A DNA stretch of 31,714 bases from Rhizobium sp. Q54 (GTDB lineage Bacteria > Pseudomonadota > Alphaproteobacteria > Rickettsiales > UBA1997), in NCBI GenBank assembly GCA_945865855.1, contig CAMBES010000001.1:1-31714 (forward strand), in the 5' to 3' direction. The notes under the pieces were generated by a model. The model did not search any database. It saw only the letters and a list, made by a program, of their open reading frames with translations, and was not told the DNA's origin. The position numbers were made by a program, and so were the translations under genes. Every line of letters starts with the position of its first letter. The stretch's first letter is position 1. Shown piece after piece: positions 125-26,218 of this stretch.

Positions 125-2044
125 TTAACGCCCTTTAATTGATTTAAAAACACCCAAAAAAGACTTCGACGCAGCTTTTAATTTTCCAATCCCAGCTCTT
201 ATTTTAAGTAATTTTTTAGCAATCTTCTCAACCTCTCTTTCTCTTTGCCTTAAACTTAACAACTCTCTCCAAGTAGCAATACCAAGAACTCGCATCGCAA
301 TTCTATTTTTTATTTTCACCTCTTCTTGGGCAGAAATTTTACTATTAGAATCGTGAATATTCATCTGCATCGTTAATTCTGGCATCCAATAAAACTTCAG
401 CCCTTCTTTGTACATTAGCGCCGCAAAATACAAATCTTCGCAATCGTGAATGAGTGGATCGATTAAAATATCGGACGTTAAGCTGCTTTTCTTAATCATA
501 AAACATGGATGAACAGGATGGTTTAAGCTCATCATCTCTTCGTAATTAACCTTACCAAACCCTCCCAAATTATAAGAGCTTTCCTTACCAGTAAGCTTAC
601 CCAGACTCATCATAAGATCGGTCATGCAAGCTCCTGGAAGAGTTTTTGCCAAAGAACTATTGTTTTTATAAACCCTTCCGGAATACACAAAATCGGCATC
701 ATATTTCGCATCAAAAAACTCCACCATTTTGGAAGCGTGGTTTGGATACCACAAATCGTCATCATCAAGCAAAGCTACGTATTCACCGCTTGAAGCTTTG
801 ATGCCATTTAGAATTAAGCTACTGCGAATATTTGACACCGACTCAATTATGACTAATTTTTCAAAACAATCTTCCAAAGATTTTGTAAGTTCGAGCAATT
901 CTTGATTTTTTTTATACAACACGAGTATCAACTCGATTCTTTTGTAAGTTTGATCAGCTAAAGATTTCAAGGTCTTTAAAACCATATCCTTCGATCTTCC
1001 TCCAGATCTAACAATCACACTAACCAAAGGGGCCTCGCCATCTTTTTTATAGCCAATACTAAGGTAATTTTTTCTCATAACTTCGTGATGAAAAGCTATT
1101 AACTTACTCAACATTTTTTCAGCAGAGAGCTTGTGGCAAAAAATTTCATGAGCTTTTTTGGCTTTAATTTTTGCATCTTCCGGATTTTTTCTAGCCCACT
1201 GCACATGAGACAAAATCTGCTTCGACATCTCATTTTCATCCCGACTTGTTACGTAAAGCAACGAATCTCCAAAAATTTCTCGGTAAAATTTTAGATCATC
1301 CGCAATACACAAAGCTCCGCTTGCGACCACTTCATATATTCTATTGTTTCCCAGACCATCTTCATAAAAATCATGAGAGCTTAGAGCCAAGCCAATTCCA
1401 CAAGATCTGTAAATGTCTAATAAATTTTCTGAATCTTCAAAATCAACCGCACCCTTAACGCAATTTTTATTTTTTATCCAAGACCATCCTTCCGCTTTTC
1501 CGTAAAGCTCTAAAAAGTTTTCTTTCTCTGACAAAATTGACAAAAGCCTTTCAAACCTAGGCCTCTTTTTCCCACCAAAGCCACCGCTGATCATCTCCCA
1601 ATTATTACCAAAATAGGCTAGTCTAGGCTCTTTGAAATTAACTTGATCACTAAACTTGGTTTCCAGCTGAGAGTTTGCAAATGTAAGCAAGTTGCAATTC
1701 TTTGAATAAAAAAAACACATATCTGAAATGGCCTGAGCAACGGTTTCGGACTGAGTTAAGTAGCCATCAAAAGTTAAATATGCTCGTAGGTCATTTTCAT
1801 TTTTTAACCTTAAACTTATCGCCTCGTTAAAAATGACGTAAGTTGGAATCTCGCAAAATTTAGGAGTAAAGCTTGAATGAGAGACGATAAAATTCGGAGC
1901 AAATTTTACAATTTCATCGCCGTCACAAAAGGACTCGATCTCTAAATCAGTTCCATCAAGAGACTTAATTTTTTTATAAACGGAATCGGACGCATTCTCA
2001 GCAGCAACTTTCTTTTTGTAGGGATTAAAAATTGCAATTTTCAT
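125..2044 (-). CDS. Two-domain glycosyltransferase: N-terminal CgeB/Glyco_trans_1_2-like GT-B domain plus C-terminal GT2 domain
   Basis: N-part has LELYGKAEGW...NNRIYEVVASGALCIAD (CgeB-like NxRxFE motif). C-part has PLVSVIV...SLADQTY...GEYVALLDDDDLWYPNH (GT2 DxD). Confidence 0.75.
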   Translation of the reverse strand: MKIAIFNPYKKKVAAENASDSVYKKIKSLDGTDLEIESFCDGDEIVKFAPNFIVSHSSFTPKFCEIPTYVIFNEAISLRLKNENDLRAYLTFDGYLTQSETVAQAISDMCFFYSKNCNLLTFANSQLETKFSDQVNFKEPRLAYFGNNWEMISGGFGGKKRPRFERLLSILSEKENFLELYGKAEGWSWIKNKNCVKGAVDFEDSENLLDIYRSCGIGLALSSHDFYEDGLGNNRIYEVVASGALCIADDLKFYREIFGDSLLYVTSRDENEMSKQILSHVQWARKNPEDAKIKAKKAHEIFCHKLSAEKMLSKLIAFHHEVMRKNYLSIGYKKDGEAPLVSVIVRSGGRSKDMVLKTLKSLADQTYKRIELILVLYKKNQELLELTKSLEDCFEKLVIIESVSNIRSSLILNGIKASSGEYVALLDDDDLWYPNHASKMVEFFDAKYDADFVYSGRVYKNNSSLAKTLPGACMTDLMMSLGKLTGKESSYNLGGFGKVNYEEMMSLNHPVHPCFMIKKSSLTSDILIDPLIHDCEDLYFAALMYKEGLKFYWMPELTMQMNIHDSNSKISAQEEVKIKNRIAMRVLGIATWRELLSLRQREREVEKIAKKLLKIRAGIGKLKAASKSFLGVFKSIKGR

Positions 2045-10994: not shown

Positions 10995-11775
10995 TCAACT
11001 CCTGCATGGCTTGTTGATATTCCTGCTCATTCATTGATTTGTAATGCCAAGGAATTGATTTCTCCATGAATGACACACCTTTCCCGGAAATTGTTTTAGC
11101 GGAAATGAAAGTTGGCTGATCAATTTTTTGTTCAATGAATTTTTTCAAAGTAGTTCTAATTTTTTCTTGATCATGGCCATTAATTTCCTCAACAAAAAAT
11201 CCGAAAGTTTTTATTTTTTGTGCAACATCAGAAATATTAATTACTTGATCAGTAAAGCCCAAAGCCTGTTGCCCGTTGAGATCAAGAATAATGCATAAAT
11301 TATTTAGCTTGTGATGCGCGGCAAATAAAATCGCTTCCCAGAAAGAACCTTCGTCAAGTTCAGCGTCGCTAATTAGACAATAAATTTTGCGATTACTTTT
11401 TTGAATTTTTGCTGCCAAAGCTGCACCAGTTGCGAAAGTAATGCCCTGCCCTAATGAGCCAGTTGTAAATTCAATTCCAGGTACAAAATGTTTTGGGTGA
11501 ACAGCAATTCTCGTACCATCAACACAGTAGCTATCGAGCTCTTCTCTGCTCAATAAACCTTTCAAAAACAAAGCGGCATAAAGAGCTAAAACGGCATGAC
11601 CCTTTGATAAAACAAAACGATCTCGCTCAGGATTCTTTGGGTCATCAATTATGATTGCATCCTGATACAAAACACCAATCAAATCAGCAATGGAAAGGGC
11701 TGAGCCAATATGCCCAACTCCGGCCACTTTAGAGTTTTTGATGACAATTTTTCTAATTTCGTCGGAGAAATTCAT
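10987..11775 (-). CDS. Split transketolase, N-terminal (ThDP-binding) subunit
   Basis: GHIGSALS, RDRFVLSKGHA, TTGSLGQG, SDAELDEGSFWE...DLNGQQ, KGVSFME. Start moved to ATG 11775 because the track start at 11868 overlaps rfbF. Confidence 0.9.
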   Translation of the reverse strand: MNFSDEIRKIVIKNSKVAGVGHIGSALSIADLIGVLYQDAIIIDDPKNPERDRFVLSKGHAVLALYAALFLKGLLSREELDSYCVDGTRIAVHPKHFVPGIEFTTGSLGQGITFATGAALAAKIQKSNRKIYCLISDAELDEGSFWEAILFAAHHKLNNLCIILDLNGQQALGFTDQVINISDVAQKIKTFGFFVEEINGHDQEKIRTTLKKFIEQKIDQPTFISAKTISGKGVSFMEKSIPWHYKSMNEQEYQQAMQELNA

Positions 11776-11783
11776 ATTTTTTA

Positions 11784-12560
11784 CTACCAGATTTTCCACG
11801 GCGCTTTGCCCGCAGACCATAAATTTTCGAGATGAATTTTGTCGCGCTGAGTATCCATCGCATACCAAAAATCTTCGTGCTTGAAGGAAAGAAGCTGATT
11901 GGCTTTAACCATATTTCTTAATGGCTCCTGTTCTAAAATCACCTCCTCGCCATTCGGAATATAATCAAAAACCTGCGGCGAAAAAACAAAAAATCCGCCA
12001 TTGATGTAATTGCCGTCGCCAGAAGGTTTTTCATGAAAATTGCGCACAGTTTCTTCATCGTCAGATAATTCTAGAACACCAAATCTTCCCGCTGGCTTTA
12101 CTGCGGTAAGGGTTGCAGCCTTGCCATGCGATTTATGAAATTTGATTGTCTCTGAAATATTGGCGTCGCAAACACCGTCTCCGTAGGTAAGACAGAAATC
12201 TTCGTCGCCAACATATTTTTGGATTTTTTTGATGCGCGCGCCAGTCATCGCGTGCTCACCAGTTTCAACTAGAGTCACTTTCCAATCTTCTGAAGAGTTG
12301 TTGTGAATAACTTGAGTATTGTTCGCCAAATCAAAAGTGATGTCCGACATGTGGCGGTAATAGTTAGCGAAATATTCCTTCACCACGTAGCCCTTGTAAC
12401 CCAAGCAAATCACGAATTCTTTGATGCCGTGAGCTGAATAAATTTTCATAATGTGCCACAAAATCGGCTTTCCGCCAATCTCAATCATCGGCTTTGGCTT
12501 AAGACCAGTCTCTTCGCTAAGTCTTGTGCCAAGGCCACCGGCAAGGATTACTGCTTTCAT
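11784..12560 (-). CDS. rfbF: Glucose-1-phosphate cytidylyltransferase
   Basis: LAGGLGTRLSEET, KPMIEIGGKPILWHIMK, LTYGDGV, FWYAMDTQRDK, APWKIW. Confidence 0.95.
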   Translation of the reverse strand: MKAVILAGGLGTRLSEETGLKPKPMIEIGGKPILWHIMKIYSAHGIKEFVICLGYKGYVVKEYFANYYRHMSDITFDLANNTQVIHNNSSEDWKVTLVETGEHAMTGARIKKIQKYVGDEDFCLTYGDGVCDANISETIKFHKSHGKAATLTAVKPAGRFGVLELSDDEETVRNFHEKPSGDGNYINGGFFVFSPQVFDYIPNGEEVILEQEPLRNMVKANQLLSFKHEDFWYAMDTQRDKIHLENLWSAGKAPWKIW

Positions 12561-23467: not shown

Positions 23468-24243
23468 TTTCTTGATTGAAGTTCAATTTTGACGTAGAAA
23501 AAAATTGTGACCGGAATTGAAAGTCCGTAAATAATTCCGAGTGCCGCAAGAGCAATCCAAGGCTTAACGATTAGGCCAATGATGAAAGATCCAAGAATTA
23601 GCAAAGTTAGGTAAGCAGAGTCGTTTTTAATCGGAATTTTTTTGATTGAGATTGTTGGAATGCGGCTTGCCATCAAGACCGCCAAGGTTCCAACGTAATT
23701 AATTACTAAAAGAGGATTTGAATAAAACCCGTCGCCAAATTCGTAAAATAAAACCATTGGCAATATTGCCATTGCTGCGCCAACTGGGGCTGGAATGCCT
23801 TTGAAGAAATATTTTTCTAAGATTGGATTTGGCGCTTCATGCGTAAGATCAACATTAAATCTTGCCAAACGAATGGCACCGCAAACTGCAAAAAATAAAA
23901 CTAGAGCCCAGCTCAGGCCGTGAAAATCATCGTAAGAATTAACCCAAGCGTAAATCACAAAACCAGGAGCAACGCCGAAATTCACGAAATCAACGAGCGA
24001 ATCTAATTGCGCCCCAAAATCCGAAGAAGAATTAAGGAATCTAGCCATGCGGCCGTCTACCCCATCCATGAATCCTGCAATAAGCAGGAAGACTGAGGCG
24101 TGAATAAAATCACCACGCATCGAAAAAAGAATCGCGGTCAAGGCAATGCAGAGGCTGCTTAAGGTAACTAAATTTGGCAGCAAACGAAATAGTGGAAAAC
24201 AGCCGTCTTCGTCGTGACGGATGCGCTGAATAATTTTAGGCAT
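23464..24243 (-). CDS. pssA: CDP-diacylglycerol--serine O-phosphatidyltransferase (CDP-alcohol phosphatidyltransferase family)
   Basis: LPNLVT, DGVDGRMAR...FGAQLDSLVDFVNFGVAP, RLARFN, FKGIPAP. Confidence 0.85.
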   Translation of the reverse strand: MPKIIQRIRHDEDGCFPLFRLLPNLVTLSSLCIALTAILFSMRGDFIHASVFLLIAGFMDGVDGRMARFLNSSSDFGAQLDSLVDFVNFGVAPGFVIYAWVNSYDDFHGLSWALVLFFAVCGAIRLARFNVDLTHEAPNPILEKYFFKGIPAPVGAAMAILPMVLFYEFGDGFYSNPLLVINYVGTLAVLMASRIPTISIKKIPIKNDSAYLTLLILGSFIIGLIVKPWIALAALGIIYGLSIPVTIFFYVKIELQSRK

Positions 24244-24319
24244 TTTGATTTTTGATTTTTGATTTTTGATCTGGAGTATTCATCAGCCTAAATCTCAAAT
24301 CTCAAATCAAAAATCAAAA
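24243..24319. repeat. Inverted pair of 7-nt tandem repeats filling the pssA/tkt divergent spacer
   Basis: About four TTTTTGA units (24243-24270), a 17-nt loop, then AAATCTC x2 and AAATCAA x2 (24290-24319). The arms pair at 25/30 positions by hand alignment. Confidence 0.88.
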
Positions 24320-24322
24320 GTA

Positions 24323-26218
24323 ATGTCAAAACTAGATCTTGCGAACTGCCTTCGCTTTTTGTCAATTGATGCTGTCGAACGCGCGAATTCTGGACACCCA
24401 GGAATGCCAATGGGAATGGCTGATGTTGCTACAATTCTTTTCACTGAGTTTCTTAAATTCGACGCGAAAAATCCAAAATGGTTAAATCGCGATCGTTTTG
24501 TTCTCTCTGCTGGGCACGGCTCAATGCTACTTTATTCACTACTTCATTTGACTGGTTACGAAGACGTAACGATCGAAGATTTAAGAAATTTCCGCCAACT
24601 TGGCGCTAAATGCGCAGGCCATCCCGAGCACGGACATCTCGCCGGAATTGAAACCACAACTGGTCCACTTGGCCAAGGAATTGCCACTGCTGTTGGCTTC
24701 GCAATCGCCGAAAGAATGGCTGAGGCAGACCACAAAACTTACGCCCTCGTTGGCGATGGATGTTTAATGGAGGGCATTTCGCAAGAAGCAATTTCGCTCG
24801 CCGGACACTTGAATCTAAGCAAGCTCGTCGTTCTTTGGGATAATAATTCAATTTCAATCGACGGAAAAACTTCGCTCACAACTTCTGAAAATATGAAGAT
24901 GCGTTTTGAATCTTGTGGCTTTGACGTAATCCAAATTGACGGCCACAATTTCGACGAAATACGCACCGCTTTACAAAAAGCTCAAAGCGCCACGCGCCCT
25001 ACTCTTATCGATTGCAAAACTACGATTGGTTTTGGCTCGCCCGCAAAAGCTGGAACAGAAAAATGTCACGGCTCACCACTTGGTGCCGAAGAAGTTAAGA
25101 AGACGAGAGAAGCTCTTGGTTGGAATTACGAACCGTTTTTCATTCCAGAAAATTTACGCAACGAATGGCTAAAAGCCGGCACCCGCACCAAATCCTCCAA
25201 CTCAATTCCGCCGGTTGAGCGCAGTCGAAACCAAGGAACCTTCGACTCACTTCCGCCGGTTGAGCGCAGTCGAAACCAAGCCACCCGTAAATCCTCCCAA
25301 CAAGTTCTTGAATTTTTGACCGGAAACCTACCAAACCTAGTCGGCGGATCCGCAGATTTAACCGGCTCTGTTCTCACCAAAACCTCGCACACAAAACCAA
25401 TTAACAAAGACGATTTTTCTGGTCGCTACATTCACTACGGCGTACGCGAACACGCAATGGGCGCAGTAATGAACGGCATTGCGCTTCACAGCGATTTCAT
25501 TCCTTACGGTGGAACATTTCTAGTTTTTGCTGACTACATGAAACCAGCAATTCGCCTCGCCGCACTAATGCAGCAGCAGCTGATTTACATTTTCACTCAC
25601 GATTCAATCGGTCTTGGAGAAGACGGCCCAACGCACCAAGCAATCGAACATTTAGCAATGTTGCGTGGAATTCCTAATCTCAATGTTTTGCGCCCGGCAG
25701 ATTCTGAAGAAACTTGGCAATGTTTTGAAATGGCTCTCGCGGCAAAAAAAACTCCCTCAGCAATGATTTTAACAAGACAAGATTTGCCATTTTTAGTAAA
25801 AGAAAAAAGCCACGAGGGTAAAAGTCTAGCCAACCGCGGCGGATACGCGCTTAACAATGTTTTAAATCCCGAAGTTGTAATCATTGCAACTGGCTCAGAA
25901 GTTTCGATTGCGGTTGAGGCAAAAGAAAAATTGCAAGCAAAAGGAATCAATGCCCGCGTGGTTTCAATGCCGTGTTTTGAAATTTTCGAAGAGCAAGACG
26001 AAGCTTACAAAAATGAAGTTTTGGGCGCAAAAAATATTTTACGCGTCGGTGTTGAAGCTGCAATTTCACAGGGCTGGGAAAAATATCTCGGCTTCGACGG
26101 AATTTTTGTTGGAATGAAATCTTTCGGCGCTTCCGGAAAAGCAGAAGATTTGTACAAGCATTTTGGAATTACTTCTGACGCAATTTGTGAACAAGTCGTA
26201 AAAAAATTGCGCGGCTAA
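24323..26218 (+). CDS. tkt: Transketolase (housekeeping, single chain)
   Basis: SGHPG, RDRFVLSAGH, TTGPLGQG, GDGCLMEG, YGVREHAM, THDSIGLGEDGPTHQ. Start moved to ATG 24323 because the track extension runs through the tandem repeats. Confidence 0.96.
   Translation: MSKLDLANCLRFLSIDAVERANSGHPGMPMGMADVATILFTEFLKFDAKNPKWLNRDRFVLSAGHGSMLLYSLLHLTGYEDVTIEDLRNFRQLGAKCAGHPEHGHLAGIETTTGPLGQGIATAVGFAIAERMAEADHKTYALVGDGCLMEGISQEAISLAGHLNLSKLVVLWDNNSISIDGKTSLTTSENMKMRFESCGFDVIQIDGHNFDEIRTALQKAQSATRPTLIDCKTTIGFGSPAKAGTEKCHGSPLGAEEVKKTREALGWNYEPFFIPENLRNEWLKAGTRTKSSNSIPPVERSRNQGTFDSLPPVERSRNQATRKSSQQVLEFLTGNLPNLVGGSADLTGSVLTKTSHTKPINKDDFSGRYIHYGVREHAMGAVMNGIALHSDFIPYGGTFLVFADYMKPAIRLAALMQQQLIYIFTHDSIGLGEDGPTHQAIEHLAMLRGIPNLNVLRPADSEETWQCFEMALAAKKTPSAMILTRQDLPFLVKEKSHEGKSLANRGGYALNNVLNPEVVIIATGSEVSIAVEAKEKLQAKGINARVVSMPCFEIFEEQDEAYKNEVLGAKNILRVGVEAAISQGWEKYLGFDGIFVGMKSFGASGKAEDLYKHFGITSDAICEQVVKKLRG
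25201..25280 (+). repeat. Two direct REP-like hairpin units in frame within tkt
   Basis: TTCCGCCGGTTGAGCGCAGTCGAAACCAAG occurs at 25206-25235 and 25251-25280 (30/30, period 45). Encodes PPVERSRNQ twice. Confidence 0.88.

Follow-up and report, generated by a model that had tools for sequence, protein, structure and literature searches.

Repetitive extragenic palindromic (REP) sequences can occur as doublets that form hairpins, the REPINs reportedly described by Bertels and Rainey in 2011. Copies, dimers and clusters of REPs also lie wholly inside open reading frames (ORFs) in many bacteria, where they contribute 20-80 extra residues (PMC3733652) and were recognized as insertions by alignment with shorter homologues (Di Nocera, De Gregorio and Rocco, 2013, BMC Genomics 14:522, PMC3733652). 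Rickettsia palindromic elements (RPEs), which measure ~100-150 bp and are specific to Rickettsia (PMC10969869), are found in frame in many housekeeping genes and encode peptides compatible with fold and function (Ogata et al., 2000; PMC10969869; PMC3733652). Among transketolases, the split-gene enzyme of Carboxydothermus hydrogenoformans is active without a linker of ~70 residues that includes two helices (PMC7661550). Here we analyze a stretch of 31,714 nucleotides from Rhizobium sp. Q54 (contig CAMBES010000001.1, positions 1 to 31,714; hereafter the window), in which the transketolase gene tkt contains two identical 30-nt stretches (25206-25235 and 25251-25280) in the region joining the thiamine diphosphate (ThDP)-binding PP domain to the Pyr domain. 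These units are very probably in-frame copies of a dispersed REP/REPIN-like repeat (core CGCYGGTTGAGCGNAGTCGAAACCAAG) lodged in the PP-Pyr tether of a functional transketolase.

Four events would account for the locus. A three-helix linker would have eroded stepwise to a short, sequence-unconstrained tether in a sub-lineage of a freshwater alphaproteobacterial genus. One REP unit would then have landed in this tether on the branch leading to the present species and its sister, replacing a stretch of similar length and reading VERSRNQ, the only frame observed in genes that is both hydrophilic and free of stops. Together with short flanks (45 nt, a multiple of three), the unit would have behaved as a minisatellite, reaching two or three units by slippage or unequal recombination, and in the window lineage a 30-nt deletion between near-identical AAACCAAG and AAACAAG would have removed the old tether tail. 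The product would be a flexible, disordered Pro/Arg-rich loop of variable length, joining two domains that assemble without a linker, and the REP peptide would be a tolerated passenger and not the cause of helix loss. The sequence relationships, the allele series, the tree, the signature of selection and the structural models are results shown here; how the unit was inserted and expanded, and that its peptide is neutral, is inferred.

The two stretches were recovered in a repeat search of the window as a direct repeat with a period of 45 nt (two copies, 89% identity); the pair escaped Tandem Repeats Finder, even at a score of 30. In the tkt frame they read IPPVERSRNQ-GTFDSL-PPVERSRNQ and run directly into ATRKSS, which opens the Pyr domain; an earlier sequence-only reading of this DNA had placed and translated them correctly. 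Tandem unit 1 (25197..25241, + strand, 45 nt or 15 codons) is identical in the sister species and contains the first copy of the REP core at 25209-25235, with PPVERSRNQ encoded by 25208-25234. Tandem unit 2 (25242..25280, + strand) is shortened at its 3' end and has no counterpart in the sister species; its core copy lies at 25254-25280 and its PPVERSRNQ is encoded by 25253-25279. This second unit is also present in two-unit and three-unit alleles from other assemblies (L136, L137), where it is followed by a tail. When the DNA of four alleles was laid out in 45-nt register, the putative deletion junction, AAACCAAG directly followed by CCACCC, fell at 25274..25287 (+ strand).

The conserved core of the family measures 27 nt. 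A 20-nt core gave no match in 100 shuffles of the window and, at up to 3 mismatches, 62 matches in the source genome (G000, a metagenome-assembled genome, MAG, of 1.19 Mb in 128 contigs, 84% complete) vs 0 for a reversed control. A profile search with nhmmer returned 63 copies, with 20 singles and with adjacent pairs that are inverted in 19 cases and direct in 4; 14 of the 63 lie within 120 nt of a contig end. The proposal that the peptide derives from a genome-wide repeat was thus borne out by both counts. Starts within an inverted doublet are ~47 nt apart, and one doublet taken as an example has a folding energy of -57 kcal/mol (z -11). The sequence-only reading had described each tkt unit as an imperfect hairpin. 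A stem of 4+4 bp can indeed be drawn, but neither unit is more stable than its shuffles (z -0.1 and +1.3); the whole tkt array, whose two copies are direct and not inverted, has a z of -0.45. The palindrome of the family appears to be the doublet, as in REPINs, and the single-unit hairpin is not significant. The family does not extend beyond the genus, where it is unevenly distributed: the sister species (G007) has 85 copies, G016 44, G003 26 and G001 14 (mostly imperfect), and other genomes have 0-2. Neither the window nor a REP-rich locus matched Rfam at its gathering threshold. Copies are mostly intergenic, and only 5 of the 63 lie inside verified ORFs (two in tkt, two in acs and one in a MiaB-like gene); a copy near a uvrD/pcrA-like gene (contig C18) was rejected as genic because it lies upstream of the likely start.

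To place the insertion relative to the loss of the linker, we aligned 28 Tkt sequences and measured the segment from EALGWN to GGSADL. It spans 106 residues in most of the genus, 90 in G011, 78 in both G005 and G001, 79 in G007 and 84 in the window genome. A linker-masked maximum-likelihood tree resolved these genomes as (G011,(G005,(G001,(G000,G007)))), with every fork starred at 100/95 or better. The linker of G011, intermediate in length, still has the beginning of helix 1 and the greater part of helix 3; it contains no repeat, and no copy of the REP family was found in the G011 genome. Both G001 and G005 have a short tether without REP, and their sequence at the position of the forward core is no closer to REP than shuffles are (p 0.5-0.6). 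The sister species G007, whose Tkt is 93% identical, has exactly one REP unit. The masked tree, the length series and the REP-free short tethers of the nearest relatives together indicate that the linker helices were lost stepwise, before REP arrived on the G000/G007 branch, where it appears to have replaced ~13 residues of an already degenerate, hypervariable tether. The sequence-only reading had named the same peptide in close homologues without this repeat family as a refutation; the close relatives G001 and G005 do not have it. Its central proposal, that repeat DNA substituted for native structure in a core enzyme, runs counter to the order recovered from the masked tree and the shortening from 106 to 90 to 78 residues.

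The tether of G005 holds a different dispersed repeat, (CTTACCA)n (contig C16, 2538-2559; L012), which reads LPLTTYPLPL. This heptamer family, often in inverted arrays, has 60 matches in G005, 39 in G011 and 0 in G000.

Pfam and structure prediction agree with the sequence-only reading that the helical linker of canonical enzymes has gone. Pfam Transketolase_N is matched only as far as profile position 300 of 334 (residue 308) and Transket_pyr begins at residue 338, leaving a gap at 309-337. In an AlphaFold2 (AF2) model built on 28 genus and order sequences (predicted template modelling score, pTM, 0.88), residues 286-320 are without secondary structure and the predicted local distance difference test score (pLDDT) falls below 50 at 291-306. 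G017, a genus relative whose linker is normal, is modelled (pTM 0.91) with three helices in this region, at 297-308, 312-322 and 330-344 (pLDDT ~87-95). A helical PP-Pyr linker of ~60-70 residues was not found in the window Tkt; by these models the native helical linker is gone, the tether encoded at 25178..25282 (+ strand) is a predicted coil in place of the three helices of genus relatives, and the REP-coded peptide is predicted to be disordered at residues 291-306.

A search of a large protein collection with the linker alone recovered ~30 clusters of near-identical transketolases (ENA, NCBI, JGI and Logan) with four linker types. Measured from EWLKAG to ATRKSS, these have one unit plus the tail GTFDFPKSKQ (40 residues), two units plus tail (55 residues), three units plus tail (70 residues) or, as in the window, two units and no tail (45 residues). 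The DNA of representative contigs keeps a perfect 45-nt register. A 30-nt tail encoding GTF(D/N)FPKSKQ is present in the one-, two- and three-unit alleles and is missing after 25280 in the window. What the window carries is otherwise the two-unit allele, shortened by 30 nt between AAACCAAG (end of unit 2) and AAACAAG (end of the tail). REP-free G001 also has the tail, which makes it ancestral. Across tkt, the two-unit allele diverges from the window by 2.3% and the three-unit allele by 3.9%, which indicates that copy number varies among close strains. The array has the properties of a coding minisatellite (variable number tandem repeat, VNTR), with a 45-nt head-to-tail unit present in one to three units within 2-9% tkt divergence. 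The variable N position of the core is the same in all units of one allele (C in one- and two-unit alleles, A in the three-unit allele), which would fit local expansion rather than repeated transposition. While the sequence-only reading denied that the repeats were merely adding a loop, the later copies do just that, lengthening it from one to two or three units. We also considered copy 2 as a 33-nt gene-conversion patch replacing 18 nt; this was dropped because the intermediate alleles show a 45-nt duplication followed by a 30-nt deletion.

The core also occurs, in the frame used by tkt (VERSRN), in acs and in a MiaB/MtaB-like radical-SAM gene of the same genome. In acs (acetyl-CoA synthetase; contig C4, ~477-974, minus strand, L119) there is a 153-nt (51-residue) tandem duplication, in each duplicate of which native sequence is joined by a forward REP core (PSVERSRN/K) and by a reverse core that has decayed. 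The MiaB/MtaB-like gene (contig C47, 659-691, minus strand, L120) has one in-frame unit, which reads LPVERSRNQ and lies in the linker that joins the UPF0004 domain to the radical-SAM domain. In relatives, the acs loop holds in-frame doublets (G005 and G016) or unrelated palindromes (G007 and G001), and the same position of the MiaB-like gene holds a full doublet in G007, a single unit in G016 and a (CTTACCA)n palindrome in G011. Doublets at these loops across the genus read VERSRNQ...LGFDxAQP. A single ancient insertion behind the REP copies that distant species have at identical positions of acs and the MiaB-like gene was rejected as a general rule, as the loops of other species contain unrelated palindrome families. 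Since species differ in having single units, full doublets or unrelated palindrome families there, the acs and MiaB-like loops appear to be permissive landing sites. One of the six possible frames of the core contains TGA, and the frame used is the most hydrophilic; the frame bias of genic copies is probably explained by this hydrophilic, stop-free frame.

The gene that hosts the array appears to be functional and in use, judging from its selection signature, its conserved positions and its modelled fold. All three transketolase domains, ThDP-binding PP, Pyr and C-terminal, were recognized by Pfam (PF00456 Transketolase_N, 414 bits; PF02779 Transket_pyr, 181 bits; PF22613 Transketolase_C_1, 137 bits), with E-values of 4e-124 to 5e-40, and Foldseek aligned the AF2 model to E. 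coli TktA (1qgd) with a TM-score of 0.93. With the linker set aside, comparison with four relatives gives a dN/dS of ~0.08 (range 0.06-0.11), which points to strong purifying selection. Every column invariant among the 28 genus and order sequences is kept, among them GDG, His residues and the Arg of ATRKSS. By E. coli TktA numbering, these invariant positions presumably include the ThDP and substrate residues. A homology search of the genome identified tkt as its sole full-length transketolase; the other transketolase-like matches were a split-type N-terminal homologue in a sugar cluster and weak E1/DXS-like matches. A related-locus search of genome contigs returned only distant alphaproteobacterial Tkt, at ≤65% identity.

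The coordinates of tkt (24323..26218, + strand, stop codon included) come from the ORF list, the translation, Pfam, the alignment of relatives and dN/dS. The surrounding open frame (24266-26218, + strand, 650 codons) reaches back to a TTG at 24266, and the start is probably the ATG at 24323 because relatives align only from residue 20. Just upstream of and overlapping this likely start region, 24243-24320 contains perfect heptamer tandem repeats (TTTTGAT x4, AAATCTC x2.7 and AAATCAA x2.3), with TTG 24266 inside them. Elsewhere in the window, a 305-residue open frame on the minus strand (11014-11790), within a sugar-nucleotide gene cluster, shares 34% identity with the N-terminal half (PP) of Tkt and looks like a split-type transketolase subunit. 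Among relatives, the Tkt of G016 (L025) and G003 (L030) has a highly charged C-terminal extension of ~40 residues (KYKDKDD...EDDED) that the rest of the genus does not have; a REP origin for these residues was rejected, the charged extension not being REP-derived.

Several observations weigh against the order and mechanisms proposed above. In each of the four short-linker species the tether tail weakly matches the reverse core (p 0.02-0.04), so that the tether may still contain an older inverted copy. The REP unit and its surroundings (25100-25300) differ between G000 and G007 (L010) at ~1 position per 100 nt, unlike tkt as a whole, which differs by 9.4% (pS 0.32); the region is far better conserved than neutral passenger DNA should be, a pattern that could stem from gene conversion by other copies, from a recent exchange or from DNA- or RNA-level selection. 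The core consensus has no clear or fixed GTAG or CGTC at its ends, GTAG appearing only in the T variant of the N position, and no REP-associated tyrosine transposase (RAYT; Y1 transposase, PF01797) scored above the Pfam cut-off in G000, G007, G016 and G003, which are incomplete MAGs. Sub-threshold RAYT matches inside very long ORFs in G000 and G007 were treated as false. The sole clear Y1 transposase of five genomes searched (PF01797, 53 bits) is in G001 (contig C51, 26116-26442; L123), a genome with few, mostly degenerate REP copies, while REP-rich genomes show none.

Resemblance between the flanks of the array was also noted in the sequence-only reading, as a possible decayed duplication. 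The left flank (25181..25200, + strand) encodes TRTKSS, like the conserved ATRKSS at 25283-25300. The likeness is real, with a best local alignment of 12/13, but modest, as 53 of 5000 shuffles reach it (p ~0.01). The pattern [TS]R[TS]KS[ST] is common to all four short-linker species in the alignment, which makes the likeness as old as the short linker and places it outside the REP event; the TRTKSS/TRKSS pair may, like the tail match, reflect an older inverted copy, and also fits an old small duplication. Neither this likeness nor the weak match of the tail changes the order of events.

An alternative in which the repeat insertion itself displaced the helical linker, for example through an ancestral doublet and a deletion in all four short-linker species with later decay in G001 and G005, would bring the tail match into its account. 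The partial inverted copy noticed earlier between the two units (CCTTCGACTC) matches the reverse core over only 7-9 nt (p ~0.02-0.04 vs shuffles), and the tail beginning TTCGACTTC is weakly like it in G007, G001 and G005 (p 0.02-0.04); the tether of G005 is likewise repeat-built, as if the site had been occupied by repeats more than once, and full doublets stand in frame at acs and the MiaB-like gene. However, TTCGACTTC is also found in relatives without REP, the forward-core region of G001 has no REP similarity (p 0.5), and G011, sister to the short-linker clade, has a part-eroded linker with neither a repeat nor a family copy in its genome. Copy 1 is moreover a perfect core, whereas its supposed inverted partner matches at ~9/27, and giving both the same age would need extra assumptions. 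We regard displacement by the repeat as unlikely. An assembly artefact, with the second copy arising from a mis-joined repeat or a collapsed duplication, might be suspected in a MAG of 128 contigs with 14 REP copies at contig ends, where the repeat does disturb assembly. However, a 69-nt Logan unitig covering 25206-25274 (copy 1, spacer and into copy 2) was found with 0 differences in lake-water metagenomes from three studies, and a fourth study contributed a 74-nt unitig (25201-25274) with 2 differences. In the one run examined (X1), the depth of the junction unitig was 9.2 vs 10.6 and 9.8 for its flanks, and at least 15 protein clusters from independent assemblies (ENA, NCBI, JGI and Logan) have the window-type two-unit linker. 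The two-copy junction is present in independent samples and is not an assembly artefact as far as contigs show, which give no allele frequencies; the assembly duplication that the sequence-only reading had named as a possible refutation was not observed, and we give an artefact almost no chance of being right.

Alternatively, the tether may have been selected and domesticated, with its peptide or length tuning transketolase (domain spacing or substrate scope) or with the core acting inside genes as DNA or RNA. The unit hardly varies between two species with 9.4% divergence in tkt, all genic forward copies seen in three unrelated genes share one frame, and a wider substrate range was proposed to follow from linker loss in the split transketolase (PMC7661550). 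These points are set against a copy number of one to three among near-identical strains, a peptide predicted to be disordered, and relatives that fill the tether with unrelated sequence or another repeat family. The acs and MiaB-like loops hold different palindrome families by species, which fits permissive sites and not a selected peptide, and the shared frame is explained by the TGA in one forward frame and the more hydrophobic reading of the others. Domestication of the tether seems to us quite improbable. Slightly less improbable, though still with a slim chance, is that the REP core is actively maintained in coding regions, as a DNA or RNA site or because unit number tunes transketolase, so that the array would be a selected, evolvable linker module; this possibility is raised by a core that is nearly invariant despite the 9.4% difference and that recurs at the same acs and MiaB-like loops across the genus. 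We therefore retain in-frame insertion of a dispersed repeat into an already eroded tether, followed by minisatellite expansion, as the preferred reading.

Read in this way, the locus would illustrate, at the level of populations, the way in which selfish repeats invade essential enzymes: they settle at places that have already lost their structure, in a frame that yields a harmless hydrophilic peptide, and later change length by slippage. It also suggests that the transketolase of wild strains tolerates, under strong purifying selection, a predicted disordered tether that differs by 30 residues between one-unit and three-unit alleles.

Compared with the known systems, intragenic REPs and RPEs are already established as a kind; the locus described here adds a natural allele series and reveals no new mechanism. 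Like intragenic REPs (PMC3733652), the family consists of short dispersed palindromic repeats, mostly intergenic, often in inverted dimers and in some cases inside ORFs. It differs from them in that its core has no clear GTAG/CGTC tag, no RAYT was found, and the copies in tkt form a 45-nt tandem array of one to three units among wild strains in a linker that was already without helices. The usual form of the family, an inverted doublet folding into one long hairpin, resembles that of REPINs, whereas the tkt copies are direct repeats and no RAYT was detected in the REP-rich genomes; the element has only some of the features that define a REP. With RPEs it shares the presence of selfish palindromic repeats in frame in housekeeping genes of a small-genome alphaproteobacterium. 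It is not a member of that group, as the tkt unit is a 27-nt core (45 nt with flanks) without sequence similarity to RPEs, in a lake bacterium. On the side of the enzyme, the structure of the Campylobacter jejuni Tkt (3l84, 632 aa) aligns in one piece across the linker and is there ~8 residues longer than the window Tkt. As in this enzyme and the split-gene transketolase, for which activity was measured (PMC7661550), the PP-Pyr linker helices are absent or shortened and the fold is kept; by analogy, the helical linker appears to be dispensable for transketolase. Those enzymes have either no linker or a short native one, whereas the tether described here is covalent and largely repeat-derived. 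Tolerance of such a variable tether is in keeping with split transketolases being active without a linker, and enzyme engineers may find it of interest.

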